NCBI GenBank assembly: GCA_016719295.1
Contig: JADKAF010000001.1
Coordinates: forward strand, 4,704,267-4,768,266
Origin: Planctomycetota bacterium
Lineage (GTDB): Bacteria; Planctomycetota; UBA1135; JADKAF01
Direction: 5' to 3'
Length of the DNA stretch: 64,000 nucleotides
In this document: positions 1,386 to 64,000 of the stretch, in pieces
Position numbering within the stretch: the stretch's first letter is position 1
Layout: every line of letters begins with the position of its first letter
The notes under the pieces: generated by a model
The model's database searches: none
Told to the model about the DNA's origin: nothing
What the model saw: only the letters and a program-made list of their open reading frames with translations
Translations under genes and position numbers: made by a program

Positions 1386-2324
1386 ATGACGCAGAACCGC
1401 ATGGGTCGAGGGCTGCGCGCGCTGATGGGCGCCGCTGCCCCGGCCATGGAGCCGACGGCGGGGAGCCACCTGCCGATCGAGCGCATCAAACCGAATCCTC
1501 ATCAGCCCCGCAAGGTCTTCGATTCCCAGGACCTGGCCGAGCTCGCCCAGACCATCAAGGACCGGGGAGTGCTCCAGCCGGTGGTCGTCCGCCCCATCGC
1601 GAATGGTAACTACGAGCTGATCGCGGGAGAGCGCCGCTGGCGCGCGTCGCAGCTCGCCGGACTCCAAGAGATCCCGGTGGTCGTCCGCCAGGACGTGAAC
1701 GACCGCGAGATGCTGATCTTGGCGCTCGTGGAGAACGTCCAGCGCCGGGACCTAGACGCGATCGAAAAGGCGCGCGGCTTCGCGGAACTCGCGACGAGCG
1801 GCGCCACGCAGGACGAGATCGCCACGTGGGTCGGGATGAACCGGGCCAGCATCTCGAACTTCATTCGGCTCCTCGACCTCCCCGAGGATGTCCAGCAGCT
1901 CGTCTCGCGCGGTCACCTGAAGATGGGCCACGCCCGCGCCCTGCTTGGGCTCCTCGATCAGGAGAAGCAGCGCCGGCTCGCCGTCGAGGTGGTGAAGAAG
2001 GGTCTTTCGGTGCGCCAGACCGAGGACCTGGTCCAGCGGATGCGGCCTTCCGGAGCGCCGCCCGTGGCTCCGCTCGAGGAAGGCGCCGAGGGCGCGGAGG
2101 GGCCAGCTTCCAGTGAGGCCAGCCCGAAGGCGAGTTCGGAGCCGCCGCGGCCGGCATGGGTGGGCTCGGTGGAGAAGCGCCTCCGCGAGCGCTACGGCCT
2201 CACGGCCCTGATCCGCCATACCCCATCCGGCGAAGGGAAGCTCGAGTTCGCCTACCGCAGCGAGGATGAGCTCCAATTCCTGCTCGAGGAGCTCGGCCTC
2301 GGCGAGGACCAACTCCCTCGCTGA
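1386..2324 (+). CDS. parB: chromosome partitioning protein ParB/Spo0J
   Basis: Track ORF 1014..2324 trimmed to ATG 1386 (MTQNRMGRGLRALMG). ParB hallmarks: IERIKPNPHQPRKVF box, GERRWRA arginine patch, HTH region. The upstream part of the ORF is Arg-rich non-gene sequence. Confidence 0.9.
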   Translation: MTQNRMGRGLRALMGAAAPAMEPTAGSHLPIERIKPNPHQPRKVFDSQDLAELAQTIKDRGVLQPVVVRPIANGNYELIAGERRWRASQLAGLQEIPVVVRQDVNDREMLILALVENVQRRDLDAIEKARGFAELATSGATQDEIATWVGMNRASISNFIRLLDLPEDVQQLVSRGHLKMGHARALLGLLDQEKQRRLAVEVVKKGLSVRQTEDLVQRMRPSGAPPVAPLEEGAEGAEGPASSEASPKASSEPPRPAWVGSVEKRLRERYGLTALIRHTPSGEGKLEFAYRSEDELQFLLEELGLGEDQLPR

Positions 2325-11731: not shown

Positions 11732-11846
11732 TTTCAGGCCCCGTTTCGAGGATGATGCGCGGCTTTGCGGGACGCGTTGCGAGAAGCCGCGAGCCGCGTC
11801 GAAACACGATCTAGAGGCGGCCAACAGGCCCCTCTCGGAGACCCTG

Positions 11847-26973: not shown

Positions 26974-27262
26974 GGGTCCTCCTTTCTGGACGGGATGCGC
27001 ACGGAGAGCTGGCGACGCGGTGCTCGATGGACTTACCGGGCCGATCCGCTCTCGAGTGCGCACCTTCCGGAGGGCGAAGGCGGCGAAGGCGTGACGGCCG
27101 CCTCTAGTTTTCTTGCTCGGGAGAGGACTCGGAGCTTCTCTTGCCGAGGCTGGTCACGCGCGCCGGCGCTTCGCCCTCTTCCCTTGCCCGCGGATCCTCT
27201 CCTAGAACTGGAGTCGCGGCCGCGGAACGCCGCATGGCTCCGTCCCGCTCGAACTCGATCGC

Positions 27263-36898: not shown

Positions 36899-37084
36899 CT
36901 CGGAGCGCGCCGCGTCGAGCGGCCCTTCCCCCTCCTCTCGTGCCGCGGAACGCCGAATGGGCCGAAGGGTCCCTTGCGCCGCACGGCCTCCGGGGAGTAG
37001 CACTTCGGCTCGCCTGCAGCGCTGCTCCTCGTCGAGAAGGCGCTCTCGGCTCCCTATGCGGCGTCCCCTGTTGGAGGACCTTCC

Positions 37085-37693
37085 ATGCGCGCTCTGCTCT
37101 GCTCCGCGGCGGTGATCTTGCTGGCGAGCTCGCCGGCGTACACGCAGGCCGTGGTCGAGAAGGTCGTCCCCCGCGCCATCGGGCTCTCCTACCAGAAGGC
37201 CAAGACGCGCTTCGAGGCGTTCGAGGTTCTCTACCAGTTCGATCCGGAGCCACCGCCCGGTGCGAACGAGAACTGCCGCGTGGTGCAGCTCACCCCGGCG
37301 TCGGGCACCCTCTTGAATGCGGGGGAACAGGTCACCGCTCATCTACAGACCGTCGATCCCGGGCAGCTGGTCGCGCCGGAGCTGCTCGACATGCGCCTGC
37401 CCTTCGCGCTCGGGGAGCTCTACCTCTGCGACTTCAGCGACAAGCGCATCGAGATCACGCCGGCCGATCACGATCCCCAGGCATGGGTGACGGAGGTCAA
37501 GCAGGAGCCCGGCGCGATCATCAACCTGAACAACGCCATCAACGTCGTCGTCTTCAACAAGCAGGGGCCCGGACCCGGTCTCCCCATCGAAGCCTGGACC
37601 TTGATCGCGATCGGCGTGGCCGTTGGCGTCGCCGTCGGTTGGTGGTTCGCCTCGAGGTTCCGCGGACGAGTGGAACGGCGCGCGGACCTCTGA
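37085..37693 (+). CDS. secreted, C-terminally anchored protein with PASTA-like modules
   Basis: GGAGG upstream of ATG 37085. Signal peptide. Two ~65-aa modules resemble PASTA repeats (VPRAIGLSYQKAKTRFEAF..). C-terminal TM WTLIAIGVAVGVAVGWWF. The PASTA assignment is tentative. Confidence 0.6.
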   Translation: MRALLCSAAVILLASSPAYTQAVVEKVVPRAIGLSYQKAKTRFEAFEVLYQFDPEPPPGANENCRVVQLTPASGTLLNAGEQVTAHLQTVDPGQLVAPELLDMRLPFALGELYLCDFSDKRIEITPADHDPQAWVTEVKQEPGAIINLNNAINVVVFNKQGPGPGLPIEAWTLIAIGVAVGVAVGWWFASRFRGRVERRADL

Positions 37694-40019: not shown

Positions 40020-40230
40020 AGGACGCGACAGGGCTCGAGAGGCGGTTTCCTCGACTCGTCGCGATCGAGAGGCACAGCCCTCGGGCGTGCGCGCTCCGCG
40101 AGTCGCGCCGTGGTGCCGAAGATCGCGCGGTCGGGGAACGCGGGACGATCCGCACCCGTGCGACTCTACTCGCGTTCCCGCGCGACGCGAGGGTCTGAGC
40201 GAGCTCTCTCCGAGGAACTCCGCGCGGCGC

Positions 40231-40482
40231 TCAGCGGCTCGTGAACGCCGACATCGCGGAGCTAGGATCCGCCTCGACCGCGGCCATCGAGGACGGCGTC
40301 CCCGCTTCGGAGTACGCGCGCGCCAATAGGCCCAGCATGCCCGCCGCGAACACCGCCGCGAGGAGCAGCCAGGTGATCGCGCGGACGCGCGGCTGAGGGG
40401 CGAGCTCGCGCGGATCGAAGCGGAGGCCGTGGGCGGATTCGCCTGGGCCGAGCTGGAAGAGGCCGGAGATGCGCTGGTTCAT
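40231..40482 (-). CDS. possible small membrane protein (83 aa)
   Basis: ATG 40482. One clear TM (ITWLLLAAVFAAGMLGLLA). It is the only plausible part of the long antisense track ORF 40231..42402. Weak call. Confidence 0.3.
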   Translation of the reverse strand: MNQRISGLFQLGPGESAHGLRFDPRELAPQPRVRAITWLLLAAVFAAGMLGLLARAYSEAGTPSSMAAVEADPSSAMSAFTSR

Positions 40483-47484: not shown

Positions 47485-48989
47485 GCCTCGAGCTCGCGAT
47501 AGCGCAGCGACTGCGCGCCGCAGACGAGCGCCACGGCGTCCGGGGTCTTTCGCGCCTGCTCTTCGAACTGATCCGGGATCGTGCGCTCATGGGGCCACTC
47601 GCACGCGGTGCTGCGTCCGGCGGCGAGCAGCTCGGCGCGTTCGCGATCGCTCATCAAGCGCTGCTCGGCGAGCGGCGCGCGCGGTGCATCGGCGAACGAG
47701 GCGAGCAAGGTCTCCAAGTGCTCCATCGCGCGCGCCATCGCCGCATCGGCGAAGCGCGTGCGATCCCAGGAGAGCTGCAGCACGAGGCCGTCCTCGCCGT
47801 AGGCGTAGAGCGTCAGCGGGAACACCGTGCGCTCGTGCAGTGCGAAGTGGCGCTCGCGCTCGGCGCTCGAGAGCTCGCGGAGCTCGCCGTCCAGGATGCG
47901 ATCGTCATAGATCAGGATCGCTTCGAACAAGTGGCGCGCGCCGCTCGGCAAGCACCAGCGCTGGATGTCGACGAGCGGGGTCGTCTCGAAGGGCGCCAAC
48001 GCGCGGTTCTGCGCGCGGACTTCGCGCAGCCAATCGACGAGGGGCAGCTCGGGCTGCAAGCGCACGCGCAGCGGCAGCGTGTTGATGAAGGTGCCGACGA
48101 TCGACTCGGCGCCCTCGACGGAGGAGCGGCGGCAGGCGCGGATGCAGCCCAGCACGACCTCGCTCTCGCCGGCGTAGCGCGCGAGCAGCGTCGCGAACGC
48201 GGCTTGCACCACGTTGTTCAGCGAGGCGCCGCTCTGCTCGGCGAGGGCGCGGAGCTGCGCGGTGAGCGCCGGTGTCAGCGCACGACGGAGCAGCCCGCGA
48301 TCCTCACCCGGAGCGAAGCTCGTGGTCGTGGGACGCGGGGAGAGCGCTGGCAGCGTGCTGCCGCCGCTTCCCGCGAGCGCGCCGCGCCAGAACGCTTCCT
48401 CGGCCGTGGCGTTGCGCCGCTCGGCGAGGTGCGCGACGTGCGCGCGGAAGCCGCGCTGTGGCGGCAGCGCCGGCGCGGAAGCGCCCGCGCGCGCCGCGTC
48501 GTAGCTCGTGAACACTTCGCGCAACACTTGCGCGAAGCTGCGACCGTCGAGCAGCAGGTGATGGAAGGTCCACACCAAGCGCTGCTCGCGCGCACCGAAG
48601 CGGAAGAGCGAAAAGCGCAGCAGCGGCGCCTTCGCGAGCGCCATTCCGCCCTGGCGGTCCTCGCGGAGCCAACGCGCGAAGCGCTCCTCGCGCTCGGCCG
48701 CGGGCATGGTGCTCCAATCGTGATTCGTCCACGCGAGCTCGACCTGCGGCAGCACGCGCGCCACGGGTTCCGGCAGTCCCTCCCACGCGAACTCGGTGCG
48801 CAGCGCTTCGTGGTGCGCGATCACGCGACGCCACGCTGTCTGAAGTGTCGCGACATCCAGCTCCTCGCTCAGGTTCGCGACGATCTGCTCGAGATCGACG
48901 CCGGGATGCCCACCCGCGATGTGGTGGAAGAGCATGCCCTGCTGAATGGAGGTGAGCGGATGCTCGAGAGGGAGGTCGCGTTCGTTCAT
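47485..48989 (-). CDS. NRPS fragment 1: condensation domain plus start of the A domain
   Basis: ATG 48989 forms an ATGA overlap with the PPTase stop. C-domain motifs LTSIQQGMLFH and HHLLLDGRS. The track ORF 46929..49466 leaves the sensible frame right after ..SLRYRELEAR (~47485), where the 44594..47590 frame takes over (..ANQLAWHLRVLGV). Confidence 0.8.
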
Positions 48990-49777
48990 CGGGAGCACCA
49001 TGCGCCGGACTCGGCTCTGGAGCGAAGGTCTGCAGCGGCGTAGGGATAGCACTCCACGGCGGCGGTGCCGCGCGGAGCCGCGAGGGCGGCCGCGAACCCA
49101 GGTACGAGCTCGAGGTCGAGGACCCTCCACCCTACTTCGGAGGTAGAAGCCCCACGGCCGTGAAGGACCGCGCGCTCGTCGGAAGAACTTTCCGGATCGA
49201 TCTGGATGTCGAGGAGCGGTGCGCGGAGCCCTTCGCCGGTGGCCTTGATGTAGGCCTCCTTGCGGGTCCACGCCGCGAAGAACGCGCGGTCGCATCGCGT
49301 GGAGCTCGCGCGCTCGATCGCTGCGCGCTCTCCCGCGGTGAAGACGCGCTCCGCGACATCGTCGGCGTCGGGCAGTCGGTGGATCTCTTCGACATCGACG
49401 CCGAGCTCGCCGATCGCGCTGAGCGCGACGACGGCGACGCCGGCGCTGTGCGAGAGGTTGAACCATAGCGCGCCGGCGAGTTCACCCGCGAGCGTCGGCT
49501 TGCCGTCGGAGCGCACGCCGATCGGCACGCGCTCCGGCGCGAGCGAGAGCGCCCGCGCGAGCACGCGGCGCAGCGCGGCATGCGCGGCGATGTAGCGACG
49601 CTGCAGGAGCGGGATCTGGAATCGAGCGGCGCGCACGCGTTCTCCCTCATCGAGGAGGTCTCGCTCGCTCGGCGAGCTCGCCGCATCTCCATCGAGCTCG
49701 ATGGTGAAGACCGCGGCTGCCTCGGGTCGGAGCTGCCAGTCCGCCGGGAGTGCCGCGGAGTACTGCACCGCGATCAT
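48986..49777 (-). CDS. Sfp-type 4'-phosphopantetheinyl transferase
   Basis: Trimmed to ATG 49777, which forms an ATGA overlap with the upstream stop. Motifs FNLSHS, GVDVEEI, WTRKEAYIKATG. Confidence 0.85.
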   Translation of the reverse strand: MIAVQYSAALPADWQLRPEAAAVFTIELDGDAASSPSERDLLDEGERVRAARFQIPLLQRRYIAAHAALRRVLARALSLAPERVPIGVRSDGKPTLAGELAGALWFNLSHSAGVAVVALSAIGELGVDVEEIHRLPDADDVAERVFTAGERAAIERASSTRCDRAFFAAWTRKEAYIKATGEGLRAPLLDIQIDPESSSDERAVLHGRGASTSEVGWRVLDLELVPGFAAALAAPRGTAAVECYPYAAADLRSRAESGAWCSR

Positions 49778-50565
49778 CGCGCCACCGCCGTCGCGCGTCG
49801 GCGATTCCAGAGCGAAGCGGCGAGCAAACGCACGGCGAACGGGATGCCGTGCACGAGGTAGCGCTTGAACAGGCGTCGCGGCTCCTGGACCAAGCGATGC
49901 AGCCACTCCAGGCCGAGGCGTCGCACGAGCGGAGACGCGCGCTTCACGTCGCCGGTGACGAAGCTGAAGCTGATGCCGACGCCGAGCCACCACGCGCGCG
50001 GCAGGAGCTGGCGCAGCTCGGCGATCAAGCGCTCCTGCTTCGGAGAGCCGAGCGCCACGTAGACGATATCGGGCTGCAGGTCGACGAGCAGCTCGCGCAG
50101 CGCGCGCAGTGCCTGCTCGTCCTTCTCGAAGCCCGGTGCGGGGCACGCCGTGCCGCGCACGACGAGCCCGCGGTTGCGCTCCGCGAGGATGCGTCCCGCC
50201 GCTTCGGCCGTCCCCGGATCTCCACCGAGCAGGAAGATGCTGCGACCCGCGCGAGCGGCGGCGCTCGTCAGGCTCGAGATGAGATCGCTGCCGGCGACGC
50301 GCTCGGGCAGCGGGGTGCCCTGCAAGCGCGAAGCCCAGACCAGCGGCATGCCGTCGGCGACGAAGAGCTCAGCGCCGGCGCAGAGCTCGCGGTAGCTCTT
50401 CTCGTTTACGAGGCGGCGCAGGTGATCGAGGTTCGGTGTCACGATCCAACCGCCGCGGCCGGCGGCGAGCTCTTGAAGCACGTGCTCGACGCATTGCCCT
50501 TCGCGCACGGCATCGATCTCGACACCGAGCAGCTCGATCCGGTGCCACGCGCGAGCTCCGCTCAC
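49774..50565 (-). CDS. WecB/TagA/CpsF family (GT26) glycosyltransferase
   Basis: GTG 50565 forms a GTGA overlap with the GT2 stop. Family motifs WIVTPNLDHLR, ADGMPLVWASR, FLLGGDPG, VALGSPKQE. Confidence 0.85.
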   Translation of the reverse strand: MSGARAWHRIELLGVEIDAVREGQCVEHVLQELAAGRGGWIVTPNLDHLRRLVNEKSYRELCAGAELFVADGMPLVWASRLQGTPLPERVAGSDLISSLTSAAARAGRSIFLLGGDPGTAEAAGRILAERNRGLVVRGTACPAPGFEKDEQALRALRELLVDLQPDIVYVALGSPKQERLIAELRQLLPRAWWLGVGISFSFVTGDVKRASPLVRRLGLEWLHRLVQEPRRLFKRYLVHGIPFAVRLLAASLWNRRRATAVAR

Positions 50566-51506
50566 GAGGTGCTCTCCTGCGGCGGCCGCCAGACGCTCGC
50601 CTGCCGCTCGTCGAGCGCGCGCGTCGCGCGGCGCTTGCCTTGCACGAGGCACGCGAGCTGATAGCGGCGCAGGAACCTGCGGAACGCGGGATCCGCGTAA
50701 CGCTTCTTCCGCGCGAAGAAGCTCTTCAGCCAGCCCCACTCCATCGCCAATCCGCCGAGCACGTACGGCGGGTGCAGCATGCGGAAGAGCGCGCTGGCGC
50801 TCATGTACAGGAAGCCCGTGCCCATGAAGTGCTGGCCGGCGCCGTGGCGCACGCGTCCGGTGTAGATGCTCTTCTGCGAGGAGCCCATCGGGCGCAGGTG
50901 CTCGAAGGCGAGCTCCTCGTCGCCATAGCTCTCCGCGCGCCAGCCGAGCTGTCGCGCGCGATGGCAGTCGATGCCGTCCCACATCACCTCGCGCACGAAG
51001 CCGCCGATCTGCTCGAAGGCCGCTCTTCGGTAGAGCTTGGTCATGCCGACCGACATCTCGTCGCCGCAGCCCTCCGAGATTCGCTCGCCGTTCGGCCCGC
51101 GGAACCAAGGCTTGCCGCTGCAGGTCGCGAGCCGCGGCTCGGCCTCCATGCGAGCGAGCAGGATCTCGAAGTAGCGCGGCGGAATGTCGAGATCGAGATC
51201 GAACTTCGCGAAGTAGGGATAGCGCTCGGGCTCGGCGACCTCCCAACCGGCGTAGAAAGCGTCGATGACACCGGGCCCGACACTGCGATGGCCGCGGTTC
51301 TCGCGGCGCAGCACGCGGATCCACGAGTGCTTGGCGGCGTACTCGGCGAGGAGCTGCGGCGTCTCATCGGAGCTGCCGTCGTCGACGATCAGCCAGCACG
51401 CCGGCCGATGCGTCTGCGCGACCACGCTGTCCAAGGTGCGCCGCGCGTACGCGGCCTCGTCGCGGCACGGCGTGATGAGCAGATACGGCGGAAGCGGTGC
51501 GCTCAT
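50562..51506 (-). CDS. family 2 glycosyltransferase
   Basis: ATG 51506 forms an ATGA overlap with the asnB-like stop. GT2 N-terminus LLITPCRDEA..LDSVVAQT..WLIVDDGSSDET and a DxD-like FDLDLD. Hydrophobic C-terminal segments. Confidence 0.85.
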   Translation of the reverse strand: MSAPLPPYLLITPCRDEAAYARRTLDSVVAQTHRPACWLIVDDGSSDETPQLLAEYAAKHSWIRVLRRENRGHRSVGPGVIDAFYAGWEVAEPERYPYFAKFDLDLDIPPRYFEILLARMEAEPRLATCSGKPWFRGPNGERISEGCGDEMSVGMTKLYRRAAFEQIGGFVREVMWDGIDCHRARQLGWRAESYGDEELAFEHLRPMGSSQKSIYTGRVRHGAGQHFMGTGFLYMSASALFRMLHPPYVLGGLAMEWGWLKSFFARKKRYADPAFRRFLRRYQLACLVQGKRRATRALDERQASVWRPPQESTS

Positions 51507-53440
51507 GCGGCCCCTCCGATCTCGACCTTCTGCGCGCGGCACCACCAGAGCAGCACGTAGAGCGACCAGATGCGCGACCAGTAGAGACCCGGGGCTCCCG
51601 CCGAGAACGCGCGCCAGAGCCGCGCGACGGCGGCGGGCTCGAGGCCGGCCGCCTCGCAAGCCGCGGCGTTCGTGAGCAGGGCGCCGACCTCTCCGGCGAG
51701 CGACGCGCGGCACCAGCGCTCGATGGGCAGCACGAAGCCGGACTTCTGGCGTTCGAACAACGCCTTGTCGAGGTTGTCGAGGGCCAGGTCGCGCAGCAGC
51801 TGTTTGCGACCGAGCGGCTCGAAGCGGACGGTCGGCGGCAGCGCGCTCGCGTTCTCGACGATGCGCGAGTCGAGCAGCGGAACGCGCACCTCGAGCGAAA
51901 CGGCCATGCTCGCCGTGTCGCCGTCGCGCAGCAGGCGCTGGCCGATGAAGCTCTCGAGCTCGAGACGCGCGATCGCCGCGCGCGCGTCGTGTCCCTGGAT
52001 CCCGCGCTCGAGGCGGTCCAAGCGCTCGAGCTCGAGGCCGTAGGCCGTGCCTTCGAAGAGCTGAGCGGGTGCGAGCTCGGCGAGGAAGCGCTGCGTGTAG
52101 AGCCCATAGGCGACTTGGTAGAGCGCGACGAGCGAGCCGCGCGTCGCGAGCAGATCGCCGAGCTTCCCCCAGCGCGTCTGCGGGGGAACCTCGCCCGCAG
52201 CGCCCGTCTTCATGCGCGCGGCGAGCCCTGCCGCGGCGCGCAGCAGCGACACCGGGACGGGGCGCAAGCGTCGCGCCCACTTTCGCGCCTTCGGCAGCTC
52301 CGCGAAGCTGCGATAGCCGCCGAAGAGCTCGTCGCCGCCGGTGCCTGCGAGCGCCACGGTGATCCCCGCTTCGCGCACCGCGCGGCTCACGAAGTAGGTG
52401 TTCAGCGCGTCGAACGACGGCTGGTCGAGCGAGCGCAGCGCGCCGTCGAGACCGCTCGTGAAGCTCTGCTCGGTGAGCCGGATCTCGCGATGCGTCGTGC
52501 CGAGGGCGGAGGCGACCGCGCGCGCGATCTTCGATTCGTCGTACGCGGCTTCGTCGAAGCCGATCGTGAAGGTGTGGACCGCGCCGGCTCCCGCGCGCGC
52601 GGCGAGGCTCGCCACCGCGCTCGAGTCGATGCCGCCCGAGAGGAAGACGCCGAGCGGCACATCGCTCACGAGCTGCTCGCGCACCGATTGCTCGAGAGCC
52701 GCGCGCAGCGTCGCCAACGAGCTGCGCGGCGCTTCGGGCTCCGGCAGATGCCACCAACGCTCGGGCTTGCACTGCGGCGCGTCGATGGAGATCGAAGCGC
52801 GCGAGCCGGCGGGCAGGAGCTCGATCCCGCGCACGAGCGAGCGATCGCTGCAGACGAAGCCATGCCAGAGATAGCTCGCGAGCGCCTTGGGCTCGAGCTT
52901 CCGATCGACCATGCCCGTCGCGAGGAGAGAACGGAGCTCGGAGGCGAAGAGCAGCACCGCGGAGCCGTTCCGGCGGACGAGGGTCCAGTAGAGTGGCTTC
53001 TCGCCCAGCGGATCGCGCGCGAGCAACACCGCTCTCCGCCGCGGGTCGTAGAGCGCGAAGGCGTACATGCCGCGGAGCTTGCGCACGCAGTCGTCGCCCC
53101 ACTGCGCATAGGCCGCGAGCAAGACCTCGGTATCCGAGCGCGTGCGAAAGCTGCGTCCGGCCGCGCGCAGCTCTTCGCGCAGCGCGGCGAAGTTGTAGAT
53201 CTCCCCGTTGAAGACGATCACGCAGCCCGAGGCGTCGTCGCGCATGGGCTGATTCGCCTCGGCTGAGAGGTCGAGGATCGCCAGGCGGCGATGCGCGAAG
53301 AGGACGCGCTCCCGCTCACCCGGGCCGGGCCAGAGGCCTTCCGCATCGGGGCCGCGGTGTGCCTGCGCCGCGTGCGCGCGCTGCAGCGCAGCTCGCAGCT
53401 CCGCGTCGATCCCGCCTACAGCGCCAGCGATGCCGCACAT
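51503..53440 (-). CDS. asnB: asparagine synthase (glutamine-hydrolysing)-like amidotransferase
   Basis: Trimmed to ATG 53440 (MCGIAG.. with the N-terminal nucleophile Cys) with AGGAGG 7 nt upstream. GATase-2 region plus the PP-loop SGGIDSS. Confidence 0.9.
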   Translation of the reverse strand: MCGIAGAVGGIDAELRAALQRAHAAQAHRGPDAEGLWPGPGERERVLFAHRRLAILDLSAEANQPMRDDASGCVIVFNGEIYNFAALREELRAAGRSFRTRSDTEVLLAAYAQWGDDCVRKLRGMYAFALYDPRRRAVLLARDPLGEKPLYWTLVRRNGSAVLLFASELRSLLATGMVDRKLEPKALASYLWHGFVCSDRSLVRGIELLPAGSRASISIDAPQCKPERWWHLPEPEAPRSSLATLRAALEQSVREQLVSDVPLGVFLSGGIDSSAVASLAARAGAGAVHTFTIGFDEAAYDESKIARAVASALGTTHREIRLTEQSFTSGLDGALRSLDQPSFDALNTYFVSRAVREAGITVALAGTGGDELFGGYRSFAELPKARKWARRLRPVPVSLLRAAAGLAARMKTGAAGEVPPQTRWGKLGDLLATRGSLVALYQVAYGLYTQRFLAELAPAQLFEGTAYGLELERLDRLERGIQGHDARAAIARLELESFIGQRLLRDGDTASMAVSLEVRVPLLDSRIVENASALPPTVRFEPLGRKQLLRDLALDNLDKALFERQKSGFVLPIERWCRASLAGEVGALLTNAAACEAAGLEPAAVARLWRAFSAGAPGLYWSRIWSLYVLLWWCRAQKVEIGGAA

Positions 53441-53670
53441 AGCGGACCTCCTGCGGAGCCCGAGCGCTGGGCATGGGCGCGACACGGTCTCGCGCGCCGG
53501 GCGATCGGCGTGCTCCTGGCGCTGAGGCTGGGGAGAGGCGGGTGCAACTTCGGTGACGGCCGCGCGGGGCTCTGCCTCGCTCGCGACGGGCGCTCATGGG
53601 TGTATTCGGACCGGCTCGGGGCAGGTCTGAAGAGACCCTCAGTCGCAGATTCTCTCTGGAAACGCAACGA

Positions 53671-53698
53671 GAGGTCGGGGACCGAAGTCCTCGACCTC
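53671..53698 (-). terminator. hairpin downstream of the mini-protein gene (terminator/attenuator candidate)
   Basis: gaggtcggggac cgaa gtcctcgacctc forms a 12-bp stem (one mismatch or G:U) with a 4-nt loop, ~100 nt after stop 53800. It is followed on the minus strand by a T-containing stretch (tcgttgcgtttcc). Confidence 0.4.
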
Positions 53699-53799: not shown

Positions 53800-54036
53800 T
53801 CAGGCCGTCGCGCGGGCGCTGCGGACGCGGCTCGTCAGGATGAGCACGCCGCCGACGAGCAGCACGATGAGACCCGTCGCGAGGGTCGGGTCGATTTCGG
53901 GCGCGTTCATGACCTCGCCCGTGGTCGCCGTCGTTCCGACGACCGTGGTACCGACGGCCTGCTGGAAGGCGAGCGCCGGGTGCGCGAACACGAGAGAGAC
54001 GAAAGCCAAGGTGCGGAGAGTCGCAAAGCGGATCAT
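53800..54036 (-). CDS. 78-aa secreted mini-protein with PEP-CTERM/VPEID-CTERM-like C-terminal sorting signal
   Basis: ATG 54036 with GGAG 10 nt upstream. Signal peptide MIRFATLRTLAFVSLVFAHPALA, then a ~22-aa Thr-rich core (FQQAVGTTVVGTTATTGEVMN), then APEIDP, a TM helix (TLATGLIVLLVGGVLILT) and a basic tail (SRVRSAR). Confidence 0.6.
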   Translation of the reverse strand: MIRFATLRTLAFVSLVFAHPALAFQQAVGTTVVGTTATTGEVMNAPEIDPTLATGLIVLLVGGVLILTSRVRSARATA

Positions 54037-54201
54037 GGCGGTCAAACTCCACGCGCGTGAGCACATCCGCGGATCGTGCCGCCGATGGCCTCGCAGCGCG
54101 CAGTGCGAGGGAGAGTTGTGTTTCGGGGAGAGATAGTCCCTCCAAACCTAGCCCGGCATCCCTCGAACTGTCCAGTCCCCGGATCAAGGAAGGGCCTTTT
54201 T

Positions 54202-54867
54202 TCAGCGCGGAGGCCGGAGCCAGGTCGGCAGGCCGCGCGTGCAGCGGTTCAGCAAAGTGCCCAGCAGGGGGATGGCGGCGCTCTCGAGCGAGCGCAGGAC
54301 GGGGCGCACATCCCCACGGCGGGTTCGACGCGCGTTGAGGACCAGGATCACCCCGTCCAACGAAGCCAGGATAGGCACCGTCTGCGGATGCGCGGGGGCT
54401 GGAGGGGCATCGACGATGAGATGGCTCCCGTCGCTGGTCAGGCGTTCCCAGATCTTCACGAGCTCGGCCGCGCGCGGCGGCACGCTGCTCGGCTTCGGAA
54501 CCCCGACGGGCAGGACGCGGAGGCCGGGAACATCGGTCGTGCGGACCGCGGCCTCGAAGGAGGACTCGCCGCTGCGGATCTCCTCGAGGCCGGGACCGGC
54601 AGGCAAGCCGACGAGCTGCGCCAGGCCGGGGCGGTGAGCATTGGCTTCGACGAGGACGACGCTGCGTCCGCCGTGCAGGGCGAGGCTGATCGCGGCGCAG
54701 GTGGCCGCGGTCGTCGTGCCGTCGCCATGCTCGCAGGCGGTGAAGGCGAGGCGGAGCGGGGCGTCGCTCGGCGCGCTGGCGAGCAAGCCGGTCCAGAGGG
54801 TGGCGAAGGTCGGGCCGAAGGGATCGAGGAGGTCGAGGAGGCCCGAACGCGAAGTGGGAGAGCTCAT
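54202..54867 (-). CDS. BY-kinase-like (CpsD/EpsG-type) P-loop protein with degenerate Walker A
   Basis: ATG 54867 forms an ATGA overlap with the wzz-like stop. Colinear with BY-kinase catalytic domains (VVLVEANAHRP ~ Walker A', HLIVDAPP ~ Walker B). Walker A reads ACEHGDGTTT with no Lys, and there is no C-terminal Tyr cluster. Confidence 0.7.
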   Translation of the reverse strand: MSSPTSRSGLLDLLDPFGPTFATLWTGLLASAPSDAPLRLAFTACEHGDGTTTAATCAAISLALHGGRSVVLVEANAHRPGLAQLVGLPAGPGLEEIRSGESSFEAAVRTTDVPGLRVLPVGVPKPSSVPPRAAELVKIWERLTSDGSHLIVDAPPAPAHPQTVPILASLDGVILVLNARRTRRGDVRPVLRSLESAAIPLLGTLLNRCTRGLPTWLRPPR

Positions 54868-56528
54868 GAGCGCGCCGCTCCCACCGCGGCTTGCCGGCGC
54901 GGTTGGGCGAGGTCGCGCGCCGACACCTCGGGCACGAGGCCGAGGACCGGAGTACCGAGGAGGCGCTTCACGTCGCCCGGCGAACGGAAGCGCCGTCCGA
55001 GGCGAGATCGCAGCAGCGCGAAGCCAACGCTGAGCGCACCGCCGACCAAGCCGCCGATCATCACCATGCGACCGCGGCGCGGGCCGCTCTTCTCGGCGAG
55101 CGAGCTGGCTCGCTGGATCTCGCGCAGGTTGATGAGGTTCATGCGATCGAGGTCGTCGAGGACGGCGATCTCCGCGCGCGCCGCCGTGACCTGATCCAGC
55201 TTCGAGCGCGCCTTGCTCGCCTCGTTCTGGAGGTAATTGAGGGTCGGGCTGCAGCGCTCCACCTCGGCCAGGTCGTCCTTCACGCTGGAGCGCCGGCCCT
55301 TGCGCTTGTCGGCTTCGCTGCGCAGAGAGACGAGCTCTATCTTGGCTGCATCCCGATCGACGACGAGGCGTTCGTAACGCGGGTTGGGCTGCTCGATCTG
55401 GCTCGGAGCGACTTCCTCGCGCTGGGGCGTCGACTCGAGCTCTTTGTCCGTTTCCTCGAGCTGCCTCTGGAGCGCGCGACGCTGGAGCTCGATCTTCTCC
55501 CGGCTCAAGTCGCTGCCGAACTCCAGCGCGACGAGCTGACCCTTCAGCTCGAGGCGTCGATCGGTGAGCGCGGTCCAGAGCGGATTGGGCTGGGCAGGAT
55601 TCGGCGCGAGCACCTTGCGCGTCGGCAGCTCTTCTTTCAGCTCGGCCTCCAAGGTCTGGACCGTCGCTTCGAGCGCCGCGATGCGTTCCTCGTCGGCGCG
55701 GATTCGCCCTTCGAGCTCCACCCTCTCGCGCTGGAGCTCGGCCCGCTCGCTGTCCGCGTCGAAGATGTTGCACTGCAGACGGTAGTCGGCGGCGGCCTTC
55801 TCTGCCGCAGCGAAGCTCGTGTTCGCCTCGGTGATCTCCTGATCGAGGAACTCCAGCCACGAGTTCGAGGAGAAGACGGATTGGTGCATGGCGCGAGCTT
55901 CCGCCATGAAGGTGTTCACCAGCTCGGCCGAGAGTCGGGGCGAGCTCGTCGTACAGATCACGGTGAGCACGCTCGAGTTCATCTCGGCACGCACGAGGAG
56001 AGCGCGCTGCAGGATCTTCGTCGCCACCGAGACGGCTGCTTCGGAATCGAGGCTCGCGGCGTTGGCTGCATCGCCTGAGAAGCTGCGGAACCAGAAGTCC
56101 TGGAACGAATGCAGCGCCTCGGTGACGAAGCCGTGGTCGATGCCCTGGCTCTGCGGATCGTAGGGAGCGAGCAGGCGGTCGGCGCCGATCTTGCGGACGA
56201 CGTTCTCGAAGAGATGCGGGTTCGCCAGCAGATGAAGCTCGTTCATCACGGCTTCGCGTGCGCTGGAGGCTCCGCCGCCGTCCGAGCCCATGATGCGCGA
56301 CTCTGCGGAGCCGCCTTCGCGCTCACCAGCGCGCACCAGCAGCTTGCCGGTCGCTTCGTAGGTGTTCGGCTCGATCGCCGCTCGGAAGGTCGCGATGGCG
56401 AGCCCGAGGCCGGTGAGCAAGCAGATCCAATAGCGCGCGTGCCAGAGCGGCGCGACGAAGGCCTCGACCAGATCGACGGGCGGGCGACGCTGCTGGTCGC
56501 TCGCCTCCTGCTCGCTAGAGAATGGCAT
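54864..56528 (-). CDS. polysaccharide chain-length determinant (Wzz/GumC/EpsF-like PCP)
   Basis: N-terminal TM (YWICLLTGLGLAIATF), long coiled-coil periplasmic region, second TM (MVMIGGLVGGALSVGFALL). This matches typical PCP-2 architecture without a fused kinase. Confidence 0.8.
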   Translation of the reverse strand: MPFSSEQEASDQQRRPPVDLVEAFVAPLWHARYWICLLTGLGLAIATFRAAIEPNTYEATGKLLVRAGEREGGSAESRIMGSDGGGASSAREAVMNELHLLANPHLFENVVRKIGADRLLAPYDPQSQGIDHGFVTEALHSFQDFWFRSFSGDAANAASLDSEAAVSVATKILQRALLVRAEMNSSVLTVICTTSSPRLSAELVNTFMAEARAMHQSVFSSNSWLEFLDQEITEANTSFAAAEKAAADYRLQCNIFDADSERAELQRERVELEGRIRADEERIAALEATVQTLEAELKEELPTRKVLAPNPAQPNPLWTALTDRRLELKGQLVALEFGSDLSREKIELQRRALQRQLEETDKELESTPQREEVAPSQIEQPNPRYERLVVDRDAAKIELVSLRSEADKRKGRRSSVKDDLAEVERCSPTLNYLQNEASKARSKLDQVTAARAEIAVLDDLDRMNLINLREIQRASSLAEKSGPRRGRMVMIGGLVGGALSVGFALLRSRLGRRFRSPGDVKRLLGTPVLGLVPEVSARDLAQPRRQAAVGAARS

Positions 56529-56531
56529 GGG

Positions 56532-57260
56532 CTAGTAGACCGGTGGCGCCGCGACGCCGGGGAACGGCAGCATGCGGCGAATGTATTGATCGACCCAGAT
56601 GTCGACGTCGTCGATCGGCGTGTTCGGGATGAAGATCACGTCGTGCGGCTGGAGCAAGAGCGCGGCTCCTTCTTCCCAGCGCTCGACCGAAGCGTCGATG
56701 CGCCACGACCGTTGGCGCTTCTCGGCCTGCGACCACCGGACGAGGAGGGCGTACTCCAGCATCGCGGTCTCTTTGCGCGGACCACCTGCCGCGGCGAGCG
56801 CTTCGACCATGGACATGCGCCCCTTGATCGGAACCTCTCCTGGCTCGATCACATCGCCCATCACATACACGCTGCGGATGCCCTGGAGCCCGAAGGTGAT
56901 GTTCACGTCGGAAGCAGGGCTGTTGGGGTACTGCTTCGCGATGAGCGCGCGGATCGGGGCTTCCGCCTCGGCCGCCGTGAGCCCGCCGATTTGGACCTCC
57001 CCGAGCGAGCCCAGCGTGGTCTTTCCGTCCGGGCGCACATCCGCCGTGATCGAACGCTCGGGAGTATCGCTCGTGGCGAGCCAGAGGATGGAGACGGTGT
57101 CTCCTGGCACCAGCAGCGACGGGCCGGGCTCGAGGGTAGCGTTGGCCTCGAGGGCGACCTCGAACATCGGGCGGCCATACGAGGTGCAGCCGGCCTCGAG
57201 CAGCGAGGCGGCGAGGAGGCTCAGGGCGATCAGGAGCCCACGGAGGGGGGTTGGTCTCAC
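56532..57260 (-). CDS. polysaccharide export protein (Wza/EpsE-like OPX lipoprotein)
   Basis: GTG 57260. Lipobox LLEAG|C. Poly_export motif region (PGDTVSI..DGKTTLGSLGEVQIGGLTAAEAE) and an SLBB-like domain (VYVMGDVIEPGEVPI). Stop lies 3 nt before the wzz-like start. Confidence 0.85.
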   Translation of the reverse strand: MRPTPLRGLLIALSLLAASLLEAGCTSYGRPMFEVALEANATLEPGPSLLVPGDTVSILWLATSDTPERSITADVRPDGKTTLGSLGEVQIGGLTAAEAEAPIRALIAKQYPNSPASDVNITFGLQGIRSVYVMGDVIEPGEVPIKGRMSMVEALAAAGGPRKETAMLEYALLVRWSQAEKRQRSWRIDASVERWEEGAALLLQPHDVIFIPNTPIDDVDIWVDQYIRRMLPFPGVAAPPVY

Positions 57261-57501
57261 CAGCGCGGCCTACTCTGTCTCGAGTCCGGTTCCAGGGACG
57301 AGGGGCGGGGTATCTAGGGCTGGCGCGGCGAGCTTTGCAAGCCGGTGCTCGACCAGTACCGCCTAGCCCCAGACCGGACGGCGAGAAGTCGAGGCCTGGG
57401 GAGCCCTGACGGAGCCTTCGGCTCGGCCAGGTCGAGACCTGCGCGCCTCCGCCGCGAATCCCCGACGCGATCCCGCCAAAGGGGCGCGGCGCTCACGGCG
57501 C

Positions 57502-60891: not shown

Positions 60892-63800
60892 TCAGCTCTT
60901 CGGCGTGATCGCCTGATCGATCGCCGAGCGCAGCTGGCTCGCGAGCACGCGCACATTCGGCTCCAAGACCATGTTGTCGTGGTCGCCGGTCACGAGGTGC
61001 AGCTCGGGACCGCCTTCGATCCACGGGCCCCAGCCGTTCAACGGCTCCACCCAGCTCGCTTGCTCGTTCACGATGTGGTCGGGACCGAGCTGGAACGCGG
61101 CATCCTGCGGCGGACGGAAGAGCGCCACGCGACCCGCATAGGGGCGGAGCTGATAGCGATCGAGCGCGCGATAGAACGCGGCCTCGATGCGCTCGGTGCG
61201 GAAGTCCGCGGGGCGCAGCTTCACCAGCGGCTTCTGCACGAGCGACTTCAGGCGCTTGCCTTGGTGCTTCAGCTTGCGCACGGCAGCGCCGACGAAGATG
61301 CCTGGGCCGTGCTTCTGCAGGCGCAAGCGCGCGAGCTTCAGGCGCTTCCCCGGCGTGAGCGGCGGTTCGAGCGGCACGGGAGTATCGAGGAAGACGAGCA
61401 GCGCTACTTGCTCGCCCGCGGCGGTGAGCTGCTGCGCCATCTCGTAGGCGGCAATGCCGCCGCCCGAGTAGCCGCCGATCACATACGGGCCGTGCGGTTG
61501 CACTTCGCGGAGCTCGGCGATGTAGCGCTCGGCCATCGCTTCGAAGGTCTCGTCCGGATCGTCGCTGCCTTCGACTCCGCGCGCCTGGATACCGTAGACG
61601 AGCTGGTCGGAGCCCAGGTGGCCCGCGAGGTGCCGCAGATTCATCACGTTGCCGTACATGCCGGCCACGAGGAAGAACGGCGGTCGCGCAGCGTTCCCGT
61701 CCGCGGCCGGATGCAGCAGCACGAGGTGGCGGAACTTCCTCTTCTTCGGCGGCGCCGCGGGCGCACCGGTGGGAGCGCTCGCGGTGAAGCTCTCGCCGAG
61801 CTCGTCGCGCAGGCGCGCGGCGAGCAGCTCGATCGTTGGCGCCTCGAAGAGCATCGCGAGGGGGAACTCGACCTTCCAGGTCTTCTTCACGCGCGCGAAG
61901 AGGCGCACCGCGATCAGCGAGTAGCCGCCGAGCGCGAAGAAGTCGTCCTGCACGCCGACCTGCTCGACGCCGAGGAGCTCCTGCCAGAGCTTCGCGAGCC
62001 CTTGCTCGATCTCGTCGCGCGGAGCTAGGAAGTCGCTGGCGAGGGCGGGGCGCGCGAACGCCGCGGTCTGCGAGCTGTCGTCTTCGCGCTCCTTCTGCTC
62101 GAGCGCCGCGCGTAGCGCCATGGGATCGATCGAGCTCACCAGGATCGGACCGCTGCGGCCCGAGGCGAGCACGCGCTCGAAGGCCTCCGCGCCTTCCTTG
62201 GGGCGGATGCCCTGCTCGACCATGCGCTGGAGCGTCGCATCGACGTGGTGAGCGCGTGCGCCGCTCTTCGCCGCCGTCTGCGCGGCGCGGGCCGTCGTGC
62301 GTCCTGCGCCGAGCGCGCTGGAAGCCGCGAAGCGCCGCAGCGCGAACTCCTCGATCTCGAGCAGCACGTGCCCCGTTTCGTCACAGATCGCGACATCGAA
62401 CAGTGCCAGCTCCGCGGAGGCGGGCCGCTTCGAACTGAGGCGCGCATGGCTCACCACACGCGCGGGCAGCGCGCCGTGGACGCGCACGCGGGCGTAGCCG
62501 AGCGGCGCGTAGAAGACGTCGTTCGCGCGCTCGCCTTCACGCGCGAGGAGGCGCAGCGCAAAGCCCGTGGCCAGGTCGAGCAGCGCCGGGTGCAGCTTGT
62601 AGGTGGCGAGCTCATCGCGGAACGCGGCCGGGAGCTCGAGGAGCGCCAGCGCTTCGGCGCTGCCGAAGCGCAGCTCCTGCACGACGTTCCAACGCGGCCC
62701 GAAGCGGAGCTGCTGCTTCTGCGCGTCCAGCGCGTCGTTCGCGATCGTCCCGCAGCGCGCGCGGAGCTCCGCCAGCGCGAGCGGAGCGCGTGCGCTCGCG
62801 CCGGCGCGCTCGAGGCGCGCTTGCGCGTGGAGCTGCCATTCCTCGTCGTCGGGCGCGCTCGCCGCGCGGCTCGAGACCTCGAATCGCCAGCTCTCGTCGG
62901 GCTCGGCCGCGAGGCGCACGAGCACGGCGCGCTCTTCGCCTTCGGCGACGACGAGCGGGCTCAGGAACGAGAGGTCGCGGATCGCGAGCGCATCGCCGCG
63001 GTCCGCGGCCGCGCGCGCGAGCTCGAGATAGCCCGTGCCCGGGACGAGGGCGGTGCCGTCGGCGAGGCGGTGCTCATCGAGCAGCCAGAGCGCGTCGCTG
63101 CGGTAGCGCGCCAGATAGGCGATCTCGCGCGGCTCGCGCACGAGGCACTTGCCGAGCAGCGGATGCAGCGCGGGCGCCTCATGATGGCCCTTGCGATCGG
63201 TGCGCGCAGGTTCCGGCGTCGGCTCGACGAGGCGCGCAGCCATGCCGACCTCGCTCCAGACGCCCCAGCCGATCGCGAGCGTGCGCTGCTTCGTCTTCGC
63301 GGTGCGATGCTGCGCGAAGGCGTCGAGGAACGCGTTCGCCGCGGTGTAGTCGATCTGGCCTGCCGGCCCGAGCCAGGCGCTCGTCGACGAGAACGCGACG
63401 AAGAAGTCGAGCGTCTCGCCCGCGAGCAGCTCCTCGAGCTGCAGCGTGCCCTGGATCTTCGGCGTGAAGACGCGATCGACGGACGCGGGCGTCTTGCTCG
63501 GGAGCACGCCGTCCTCGACCACGCCGGCGGCGTGGATCACGCCGTGGAGACGACCCCAGCGCTGGCGCACCTCCGCGAGGAAGGCGCCGAGCTCGACGGG
63601 ATTCGCGACGTCGGCGGCGCCGACCAGGACCTCCGCGCCCTGCGCCTCGAGCTCGAGCAAGCGGCGCAAGCGCTGGCTCGTCGCGTCATGCGCGTCGTGG
63701 CTCGCGAGCCAGCGCGACCACGTATCGCGCGGCGGCAGCGCGTGCCGAGCGACGAGGGCGAAGCGCACGCGTGCGCGGCTCGCGAGGTGTTGCGCGATCG

Positions 63801-64000
63801 CGAGGCCGATGCCGCCGAGACCGCCGGTGACGAGATAGGTGCCCTGCTCGCGCACGGGCAGCTTCTCCGCCGGAGCAGCCGCGATCGGCGCGGGGCGAGC
63901 TCCTGCACGAAGCGCTTCCCGTCGCGCCAAGCGCTGAGCGACGCGGGACGCGGCACGGCGAGCTCGGCGAGCAAGCTGCGCTGCGCGGACGCCGCCAACG
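60892..64000 (-). CDS. type I PKS/NRPS-hybrid terminal fragment KR - DH - carrier (PCP-type) - thioesterase, 5'-partial (continues beyond window; apparent frameshift near 63890)
   Basis: KR: GTYLVTGGLGGIGL, catalytic IDYTAANAF, WGVWSEVGMA. PS-DH: LLDEHRLADGTALVPGTGYLE and HPALLDLATG. Carrier: FFALGGYSLIAV. TE: GGYSGGG. Upstream of ~63890 the protein-like, GC3-rich frame is that of track ORF 63537..63998 (..SLSAWRDGKRFVQELAP). Confidence 0.85.
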   Translation of the reverse strand, partial: VGGVRAAQLARRARRAASRVAQRLARREALRAGARPAPIAAAPAEKLPVREQGTYLVTGGLGGIGLAIAQHLASRARVRFALVARHALPPRDTWSRWLASHDAHDATSQRLRRLLELEAQGAEVLVGAADVANPVELGAFLAEVRQRWGRLHGVIHAAGVVEDGVLPSKTPASVDRVFTPKIQGTLQLEELLAGETLDFFVAFSSTSAWLGPAGQIDYTAANAFLDAFAQHRTAKTKQRTLAIGWGVWSEVGMAARLVEPTPEPARTDRKGHHEAPALHPLLGKCLVREPREIAYLARYRSDALWLLDEHRLADGTALVPGTGYLELARAAADRGDALAIRDLSFLSPLVVAEGEERAVLVRLAAEPDESWRFEVSSRAASAPDDEEWQLHAQARLERAGASARAPLALAELRARCGTIANDALDAQKQQLRFGPRWNVVQELRFGSAEALALLELPAAFRDELATYKLHPALLDLATGFALRLLAREGERANDVFYAPLGYARVRVHGALPARVVSHARLSSKRPASAELALFDVAICDETGHVLLEIEEFALRRFAASSALGAGRTTARAAQTAAKSGARAHHVDATLQRMVEQGIRPKEGAEAFERVLASGRSGPILVSSIDPMALRAALEQKEREDDSSQTAAFARPALASDFLAPRDEIEQGLAKLWQELLGVEQVGVQDDFFALGGYSLIAVRLFARVKKTWKVEFPLAMLFEAPTIELLAARLRDELGESFTASAPTGAPAAPPKKRKFRHLVLLHPAADGNAARPPFFLVAGMYGNVMNLRHLAGHLGSDQLVYGIQARGVEGSDDPDETFEAMAERYIAELREVQPHGPYVIGGYSGGGIAAYEMAQQLTAAGEQVALLVFLDTPVPLEPPLTPGKRLKLARLRLQKHGPGIFVGAAVRKLKHQGKRLKSLVQKPLVKLRPADFRTERIEAAFYRALDRYQLRPYAGRVALFRPPQDAAFQLGPDHIVNEQASWVEPLNGWGPWIEGGPELHLVTGDHDNMVLEPNVRVLASQLRSAIDQAITPKS

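Follow-up and report, generated by a model that had tools for sequence, protein, structure and literature searches.

A short protein of a planctomycete exopolysaccharide cluster as a probable substrate of exosortase E

The described system closest to the gene considered here is that of exosortase E (XrtE) and its VPEID-CTERM targets (TIGR04162 and TIGR04161, respectively), which has been described in silico only, so that both partners have existed to date as database definitions. In the related PEP-CTERM/XrtA (EpsH) system, target genes were found as single-gene units behind a large intergenic region, and fusions of EpsH with a CAAX protease were already noted (Haft et al. 2006, PMC1569441). 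Within the enzyme family, chemistry has experimental support for archaeosortase A (ArtA) only, in which removal of the C-terminal helix is coupled to lipid attachment (Haft 2023 preprint 10.1101/2023.06.07.544157). Transfer to another moiety has been proposed for exosortases and archaeosortases. Cleavage of MYXO-CTERM by MrtX, a protease of the CPBP family, has been shown experimentally (PMC11980579). Here we analyse a gene for a 78-residue protein (the mini-protein) in a stretch of 64,000 nucleotides (the window) from a Planctomycetota bacterium (assembly GCA_016719295.1, contig JADKAF010000001.1, positions 4,704,267 to 4,768,266). An initial annotation had read the end of this protein as a VPEID- or PEP-CTERM-like sorting signal. 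We propose that the mini-protein is probably a dedicated XrtE substrate with a diverged VPEID-CTERM signal, encoded in the same exopolysaccharide (EPS) and nonribosomal peptide synthetase (NRPS)–polyketide synthase (PKS) supercluster as its enzyme. The gene and its parts are as follows.

53800..54036, minus strand: mini-protein gene, 78 codons plus stop (GenBank MBK9386722.1, IPN34_18055, labelled 'hypothetical protein')
53968..54036, minus strand: predicted Sec signal peptide, residues 1-23 (MIRFATLRTLAFVSLVFAHPALA), with a putative signal peptidase I site between ALA and FQQ
53905..53967, minus strand: low-complexity core, residues 24-44 (FQQAVGTTVVGTTATTGEVMN), 21 residues including 6 Thr
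53887..53904, minus strand: signature motif APEIDP, residues 45-50, with P46 and E47 invariant in the family
53833..53886, minus strand: predicted transmembrane (TM) helix, residues 51-68 (TLATGLIVLLVGGVLILT), 18 residues, mean Kyte-Doolittle value 2.56 over 17 residues
53803..53832, minus strand: basic, presumably cytoplasmic tail SRVRSARATA, residues 69-78, with R70 and R72 conserved in the family

The open reading frame (ORF) and its translation agree exactly with those first reported, and database protein MBK9386722.1, from a 'Planctomycetes bacterium' metagenome-assembled genome (MAG) with a 7,061,272-bp contig, is identical to it. The tripartite C-terminus, consisting of a Pro-Glu motif, a TM helix and an Arg-rich end, is present as claimed. 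The N-terminus has a positive n-region, a hydrophobic h-region and a small-x-small site (ALA before FQQ), signal peptides having been called throughout by inspection and a crude heuristic rather than a SignalP-type predictor; the A-x-A/S site followed by FQQ is kept in 4/4 clade members in the alignment, and the h-region varies. A Thr-rich core of about 22-24 residues with 7 Thr had been suggested. The core is indeed Thr-rich, but its 21 residues include 6 Thr, the seventh lying after the motif.

The window is 69% G+C and rich in shadow ORFs, and the mini-protein ORF has a G+C content at third codon positions (GC3) of 0.85. Three orthologs (P0002-P0004) are 63-80% identical to it; residues 42-77 are almost invariant among them, and the signal peptide and core are variable. 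Over the last 35 codons, the proportion of synonymous differences (pS) among the four loci was 0.13-0.45 and that of nonsynonymous differences (pN) 0.013-0.067, giving a dN/dS of 0.04-0.10. Because synonymous change is ample, constraint on the tail acts at the protein level. Change is faster in the core than in the tail (pN up to 0.43 versus at most 0.07), and the tail is 89-97% identical between loci, between which the neighbouring genes are 70-96% identical. The mini-protein ORF is thus a real, conserved gene whose tail is under strong purifying selection.

The genome that carries this gene also encodes XrtE. A search with the XrtE of locus L008 (described below), in line with the exosortase check proposed at the outset, returned P0085 (MBK9386733.1, 561 aa, named exosortase E/protease by NCBI), which scored 178.9 bits against the curated model TIGR04162, 'exosortase E/protease, VPEID-CTERM system' (cut-off 150). 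It lies on a 7,061,272-bp contig, the same size as that of the mini-protein, and the two accessions (MBK9386733 and MBK9386722) are 11 apart. No exosortase, archaeosortase, rhombosortase or CPBP sorting protease was found in the 64-kb window by hidden Markov model (HMM) scans or tblastn. Because XrtE is absent from the window and the ORF eleven genes to the left is unrelated, the XrtE gene is placed beyond the right edge of the window, past the PKS gene. A sister MAG (GCA_016793245.1) carries both partners on one 51,019-bp contig, JAEUHW010000455.1, the map of which joins two loci (L013 and L003) through an identical 461-bp overlap. On this contig, XrtE (MBL8901600.1) and the mini-protein (MBL8901612.1) belong to one EPS cluster and lie 12 genes and 19.5 kb apart. 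The gene order is Wzx, Wzy-like, a family 2 and a family 4 glycosyltransferase (GT2, GT4), two beta-helix proteins, XrtE, polysaccharide deacetylase, a PMT_2-like 525-aa protein, GT2, a methyltransferase-like protein, an AlgX-like protein, PKS, GT4, a priming glycosyltransferase, outer-membrane polysaccharide export protein (OPX), polysaccharide co-polymerase (PCP), a kinase-like protein, the mini-protein, AsnB, GT2 and WecG; XrtE is six genes beyond the PKS. Positions 64000 to 50267 of the window are collinear with this contig at 86% nucleotide identity over 13.9 kb, so the XrtE gene of the window genome is expected about 9.5-11 kb past position 64000. The samples that yielded the other mini-proteins of the clade also contain XrtE orthologs, 88% and 83% identical to P0085.

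In another EPS cassette (loci L008 and L009, with Wzx, OPX, Wzz, kinase-like and priming glycosyltransferase genes), the gene for a mini-protein homolog, P0008, immediately precedes that for a 545-aa protein which combines Exosortase_EpsH and Rce1-like/CPBP domains and scored 180.3 bits against TIGR04162. XrtE is a fusion of an exosortase domain, with its Cys, Arg and His residues, and a CPBP glutamic intramembrane protease. Among 20 XrtE homologs, C251-x-G253, R298 and H319 are invariant in the exosortase domain, as are the CPBP motifs E473-E474-xxx-R478, F510-xxx-H514 and H544-xxx-N548. No solved structure among the PDB sequences matched the XrtE profile.

The pairing of enzyme and tail extends across phyla. 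A genome scan yielded 80 XrtE loci (L014-L093) from Planctomycetota, Myxococcota, Acidobacteriota, Binatia, Thermodesulfobacteriota, methanotrophic Gammaproteobacteria and Alphaproteobacteria, and their 18,072 six-frame ORFs were all searched with a 36-position tail HMM at a threshold of at least 19 bits. It detected 80 tail ORFs in 64 of the 80 loci. Nearly all (79/80) are co-oriented with XrtE and 71/80 lie within 1 kb of it, compared with 11.7% of the searched DNA that is this close; the tail domain ends 0-5 residues before the stop codon in 78/80. There is one tail ORF in 52 loci and there are 2-4 in 12 loci, with tandem arrays of 2-4 divergent copies seen, for example, in L072, L073 and L028. 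These targets are almost all free of cargo: their estimated median length is about 70 aa (at most 120 aa in 72/73), with a median of 10 residues between the signal h-region and the motif. When ORFs of at least 150 aa from the 80 loci were clustered, only XrtE recurred broadly. The next real families, which include Ig-like surface proteins, SDR, epimerase, sulfotransferase, GT2, Poly_export and a sigma-54 activator, occurred in at most 15/80 loci. The conserved unit is therefore the pair of XrtE and mini-protein. A tail profile built independently, from XrtE-adjacent ORFs only and with the three closest Planctomycetota loci left out, was applied to 730 ORFs of the window and recovered the mini-protein at 42.2 bits (E=1.9e-12), with the runner-up at 3.9 bits.

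An exhaustive profile search started from the four-sequence alignment (1.84 billion representative sequences, E<=1e-3) revealed 73 representative relatives, almost all of 55-143 aa and aligned end to end. Their common plan is a signal peptide, a short core rich in Gly, Ala, Ser, Pro and Thr (sometimes in His), and the motif [AV]PEI[DN]P followed by a TM helix and an Arg tail, with the consensus [AV]PEI[DN]P-x3-4-G-x3-LL[VI]GGxL[IV]LTxRRRR. P46 and E47 are invariant in 74/74 sequences, and I48, P50, the helix residues L59, G62, G63 and L67 and the tail residues R70 and R72 are each conserved in at least 90% of the family. A signal-like h-region with a small-x-small site was recognized by the crude heuristic in 71/73 members. 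Core length has a median of about 26 aa and can be as low as 3 aa. The initial annotation further suggested that the Thr residues could be glycosylated and that the protein could be an acceptor, primer or anchor of the product; Thr-richness is limited to the window clade and a few relatives and is not a family trait, the other cores being rich in Gly, Ala, Ser and Pro. In one member, P0071 (368 aa), this tail follows a passenger with HAF repeats (TIGR02913, 145 bits), indicating that the tail is a modular signal. A single tail ORF was found in the window and likewise in 35 kb of the sister contig, which fits the criteria for dedicated systems given in the Haft 2023 preprint.

The same-genome XrtE, the sister map, the adjacency of P0008 to XrtE and the 64 of 80 loci thus support the suggestion that the tail is a sorting signal of the VPEID/exosortase E type. 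The initial annotation had named the absence of an exosortase from the genome, the absence of other proteins with the tail and a lack of conservation of the ORF as findings that would speak against it; what we found were XrtE, 73 relatives and conserved loci.

Several observations weigh against this assignment. The HMM comparison first suggested as a check gave no support: in NCBIfam and Pfam scans, the mini-protein had no match at E<=10 to TIGR04161 (VPEID-CTERM) or TIGR02595 (PEP-CTERM), and because of this it lies outside both families as they are now delimited. TIGR04161 touches 16 of the 74 family members, and those scanned individually scored 14.4-18.1 bits, below its curated cut-off of 33. 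The position of XrtE in the window genome relies on accession order, a contig of equal size and the sister map, not on sequence, and in the window clade the mini-protein gene is 11-12 genes from XrtE rather than adjoining it. In some members, no more than about 3 residues separate the signal peptide from the motif, which is odd for the sorting of cargo, and the TM helix is more conserved than a disposable anchor would require. Finally, CC-licensed full text contained no mention of VPEID and no experimental study of any XrtE system.

The scores on TIGR04161 are graded, rising to those of ORFs above the curated cut-off. Among XrtE-adjacent ORFs of other phyla, those of Methylomicrobium lacus (52 bits), an alphaproteobacterium (37.2 bits) and a Bryobacteraceae MAG (33.5 bits) pass, and others, at 19-32 bits, fail, among them further Acidobacteria ORFs at 24.8-31.8 bits; Binatia ORFs and members from the profile search reach 14-19 bits or have no match. 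Where family members match the model, the alignment begins at model position 1, on the motif. The window motif A-P-E-I-D-P differs from the name-giving V-P-E-I-D by a V-to-A change and an extra Pro, and the fifth position is D or N in the family. Three further features of VPEID-CTERM proteins are present: a tripartite C-terminus together with a signal peptide (the latter by heuristic), co-occurrence with XrtE in the same genome (P0085), and pairing of target and enzyme in one neighbourhood, which in the window clade is a single cluster. TIGR02595 is not among the 25 families most often matched across the 74 members. The sole NCBIfam/Pfam match of the mini-protein is a sub-threshold one to the LPxTATN anchor model, aligned over the TM helix and Arg tail only, and LPXTG-type matches in many family members reflect a generic helix followed by arginines. 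An LPXTG-type sortase anchor (TIGR01167, NF058670, NF058582) was therefore rejected, at 12.5 bits against a cut-off of 32 and with no LPXTG motif.

Compared with the described systems, the locus is closest to VPEID-CTERM/XrtE, with which it shares the signal peptide, the C-terminal motif, TM helix and Arg cluster, the identical P-E-I-D and the pairing with XrtE across phyla. It differs in that the window protein and most members of Planctomycetota/Myxococcota type fall below the TIGR04161 cut-off or go undetected, in its A-P-E-I-D/N-P motif with an LLVGGxL[IV]LT helix, and in the location of the clade target inside the export operon. With the PEP-CTERM/XrtA system it shares a Pro-Glu tripartite signal, EPS biosynthesis and export genes, an AsnB-type amidotransferase and a small target unit with a promoter-like element behind a large upstream gap; in contrast, there is no PEP motif, one target instead of dozens and the XrtE fusion instead of XrtA, and the neighbours score under the XrtA-system cut-offs. 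The JDVT-CTERM/MrtJ and single-target GlyGly-CTERM/rhombosortase systems (10.1101/2023.06.07.544157; PMC3237569) likewise place one target near its intramembrane enzyme and are sporadic in taxonomy, and XrtE resembles MrtJ and MrtX in having a C-terminal domain of the CPBP family. Unlike the enzymes of these systems, XrtE adds an exosortase domain with Cys, Arg and His, and the mini-protein motif has no invariant Cys, so that the mechanism proposed for myxosortases, in which lipidation of Cys comes first, is inapplicable. ArtA is a homologous enzyme, but it is archaeal, has a large S-layer glycoprotein, and not a peptide of some 25 residues, as its substrate and carries no fused CPBP domain.

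Curated databases already define XrtE with a VPEID-type target, so that the finding is not categorically new. What is new is a tail variant missed by the curated model, a target moved into the export operon, the cargo-free nature of the targets and the pair as the only conserved module. A large Planctomycetota/Myxococcota-type branch of XrtE targets has been invisible to the curated model and labelled 'hypothetical protein', a gap that a broader HMM would close. The near absence of passengers raises the question of what an exosortase does when there is almost nothing to sort, and the clade locus, with its target in an EPS export operon next to NRPS and PKS genes, suits the question of peptide attachment to polysaccharide or lipid that has stood since 2006.

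On the proposed reading, the gene would be transcribed from its own promoter-like element, with a conserved hairpin behind it. The product would be exported by Sec and cut by signal peptidase I after ALA23, and the 55 residues that remain would, from their architecture, form a type I peptide in the inner membrane, with the 21-residue Thr-rich segment and APEIDP on the periplasmic face, one TM helix and the Arg-rich end in the cytoplasm. By analogy with ArtA/PGF-CTERM and other tripartite signals, XrtE may then recognize the PEID-helix-Arg signal and cut at or near the motif, whereupon the helix would be removed. More speculatively, a peptide of about 22-25 residues (of the type FQQAVGTTVVGTTATTGEVMNAPE) might be hydrolysed free or transferred to a lipid or polysaccharide. 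With so little passenger, both here and in XrtE systems at large, the product would be a short peptide, possibly modified, and not a functional protein that is sorted.

The main rival, which we consider unlikely, is that the mini-protein is never cleaved and acts as a single-pass membrane micro-protein, an accessory or regulatory subunit either of XrtE (as a pseudo-substrate or gate) or of the PCP/kinase export complex, with the PEID motif and the GG-helix as protein-protein contact surfaces. Motif and helix keep 31-34 of 35 residues between loci in which the kinase-like and PCP genes are 70-93% identical, helix-packing motifs typically contain glycines such as G62 and G63, many members have next to no passenger, and the clade gene has moved beside the kinase-like gene instead of XrtE, all of which would suit a subunit. 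However, the exact tripartite layout and the extreme C-terminal position are those of known cleaved sorting signals, and the same tail ends the HAF-repeat protein P0071, whose class is described as extracellular. Moreover, the tandem divergent copies beside XrtE resemble multiple substrates more than a stoichiometric subunit, and both protease active sites of XrtE are conserved.

Improbable too, in our estimation, is a further-reaching proposal in which the mini-protein serves as a ribosomally made peptide handle: XrtE would transpeptidate the PEID-cut, Thr-rich segment of about 22-25 residues onto EPS or onto an amino-lipid made by the NRPS, PKS and phosphopantetheinyl transferase (PPTase), and the segment may be O-glycosylated by a PMT_2-like GT-C enzyme of related clusters. 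If this were true, the cluster would make a peptide-linked anchor or cap for its polymer, and XrtE systems generally would be machines for peptide tagging or anchoring, not protein sorters.

We see very little chance that the gene encodes the precursor of a ribosomally synthesized and post-translationally modified peptide (RiPP) that is modified by the AsnB-like enzyme and the NRPS/PKS, with the C-terminal helix as a mere tether or leader. Precursor genes are typically small, with a promoter-like element of their own and a hairpin behind them, as is the case here. Genes for carrier proteins recur near homologs, and AsnB, a homolog of lasso-peptide or macrolactam cyclases with a weak lasso cyclase match (189 bits), is encoded directly downstream. 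Yet AsnB passes the cut-off for a glutamine-hydrolysing asparagine synthase (435 versus 267 bits) and is far under that for a lasso cyclase (189 versus 525), and no RiPP recognition element, leader peptidase or ABC exporter was found nearby in scans of the window. In addition, conservation of the protein is lowest in what would be the core peptide, and XrtE, not AsnB, is the sole conserved partner across the 80 loci.

Still less credible is an ordinary PEP-CTERM protein served by an XrtA-type exosortase of the EPS locus. The export genes and the amidotransferase do have XrtA-system models as their best or near-best matches; but the export, chain-length, kinase and amidotransferase genes of the window are all below the XrtA-system equivalog cut-offs, TIGR02595 finds nothing at E<=10, the motif is PEID and not PEP, no XrtA is encoded in the window and the exosortase of the sister cluster is XrtE. 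A chance ORF, of which GC-rich DNA yields many, several of them overlapping the mini-protein region, is effectively refuted by the dN/dS and GC3 values, the conserved start, stop and position and the 73 family representatives.

The mini-protein gene is flanked by conserved signals.

54145..54174, minus strand: promoter-like block, TGGACA (54169-54174) and TAGGTT (54145-54150) separated by 18 nt, recognized by conservation
54047..54050, minus strand: GGAG Shine-Dalgarno-like element, 10 nt upstream of the ATG
53671..53698, minus strand: 12-bp hairpin with a tetraloop, about 100 nt past the stop, with a U-rich stretch next to it

The upstream gap pointed out at the outset is 165 nt long and contains the promoter-like block, in which GACA..TTC and GGGCTA..TTTG are invariant in four loci inside an otherwise variable spacer. 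A strict sigma-70 promoter scan did not call this block, and reading it as a promoter therefore depends on its conservation. The ribosome-binding site that had been called good is present as GGAG in the window, L002 and L003 but absent in L006. The downstream hairpin likewise proved real and conserved across four loci, pairing at 11/12 positions in the window and 12/12 in L002 and L003, with one double compensatory substitution (U-A to C-G) and two G-U changes across L003 and L006; however, it lies well beyond the stop and is not a canonical intrinsic terminator, a strict terminator scan having failed to call it. It is possibly an attenuator or an RNA-stability element. An Rfam search of the flanks of the gene returned no match. 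Past the hairpin, about 150 nt of the 359-nt AsnB leader (53441-53670, minus strand) are conserved in L002 and L003 and partly in L006, as in the letters GAGCGCCCG.CGCGAGCGAGGCAGAGCCCCGCGCGGCCGTCACCGAAGTTGCATCC, with no Rfam match and no obvious ORF; this could be a regulatory leader or a small RNA.

The neighbouring genes form a Wzx/Wzy-type EPS export set and a biosynthetic string.

60892..63999, minus strand: C-terminal part of a PKS of the 2149-aa class, running off the window
56532..57269, minus strand: OPX (Poly_export/SLBB), Pfam Poly_export in orthologs
54864..56528, minus strand: PCP (chain-length determinant), TIGR03007 72 bits, below cut-off; syntenic
54202..54870, minus strand: BY-kinase-like P-loop ATPase of EPS export, upstream neighbour of the mini-protein gene; best NCBIfam match TIGR03018 (XrtA-associated tyrosine autokinase), 62.6 bits, cut-off 230; syntenic in all loci
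51503..53440, minus strand: AsnB-type glutamine amidotransferase, downstream neighbour; TIGR01536 435 bits, above cut-off 267

The other flanking genes encode GT2, WecG, an Sfp-type PPTase, an NRPS condensation-domain protein, a priming glycosyltransferase and GT4, and the mini-protein gene indeed stands, as described initially, between the export genes (OPX, PCP, kinase-like) and the string of amidotransferase, GT2, WecG, PPTase and NRPS genes. L002 and L003, which are long enough to show both flanks, have the order OPX, chain-length determinant, kinase-like ATPase, mini-protein and AsnB, continued in L003 into GT2 and WecG; the short contigs L004-L006 are consistent with this order as far as they reach. 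AsnB scored 416 bits against TIGR03108, 'XrtA/PEP-CTERM system amidotransferase', below its cut-off of 817. Its true start is probably MCGIAG at 53440, because this gives the MCGI N-terminus and matches a 645-aa ortholog.

PMT_2-like membrane proteins (GT-C, protein-O-mannosyltransferase type) occur near XrtE or the mini-gene at L013:7110-8687 (minus strand) and L007:10403-12043 (plus strand), with one match at 24 bits, just below the gathering score; a 517-aa protein at L008:16170-17723 (minus strand) is 28% identical to that of L013 by sequence comparison. These neighbours in L013 and L007 are a possible hint of glycosylation of the core. As a general partner of XrtE, a GT-C glycosyltransferase was rejected: single-sequence searches found one in 1-2 of the 80 loci, and the clustering shows no widely conserved neighbour. 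Because PMT_2-like proteins are undetectable across XrtE loci generally, the link to glycosylation is anecdotal, being limited to L007 and L013. Carrier-protein chemistry recurs beside mini-protein homologs. In L007:10403-20001, the mini-gene is followed by the PMT_2 GT-C glycosyltransferase and, a few genes on, by a DltB/DltC/DltA-like trio (MBOAT, PP-binding, AMP-binding), and the gene directly after P0005 (L094:607-1038) encodes a PPTase (AASDHPPT_N, 40.2 bits).

In the clade, XrtE is followed by one or two BACON_2/Beta_helix proteins of about 700 aa (L013:11911-16855; L011:2823-4919; L012:1863-6652), which have lipoprotein-like N-termini (AASCG) and no sorting tail. These proteins, and the PKD protein beside the XrtE of L008, were considered as tail carriers and rejected, as they have no tail. 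The window itself encodes a 722-aa beta-helix protein at 24895-27063 (minus strand), far from the cluster.

Among the six-frame ORFs of the window, a C-terminal TM helix with a basic tail is found in two only, the mini-protein and a 230-aa ORF at 37001..37693 (plus strand). The latter has a weak PASTA-domain match and the C-terminus GLPIEAWT LIAIGVAVGVAVGWWFA SRFRGRVERRADL, and it adjoins a gene for a Ser/Thr kinase-FGE-sulfatase-domain fusion (37716-40478). It was rejected as a second substrate, having no PE motif and being missed by the tail profiles.

Within the EPS cluster, minus-strand ORFs at 44594-47590, 46932-49466 and 48989-50146 encode a split NRPS adenylation domain, a stand-alone condensation-domain protein and an Sfp/HetI-type PPTase. 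The adenylation domain is split by a luciferase-like monooxygenase of the MupA/Atu3671 family (TIGR04020, 512.7 bits) and is followed by a carrier domain. Genes for ParB (ParB_N/HTH_ParB/ParB_C; 969-2324, plus strand) and GyrA (11520-14477, plus strand) stand in the left part of the window, and the EPS supercluster may therefore be no more than about 50 kb away from the chromosome partition region.

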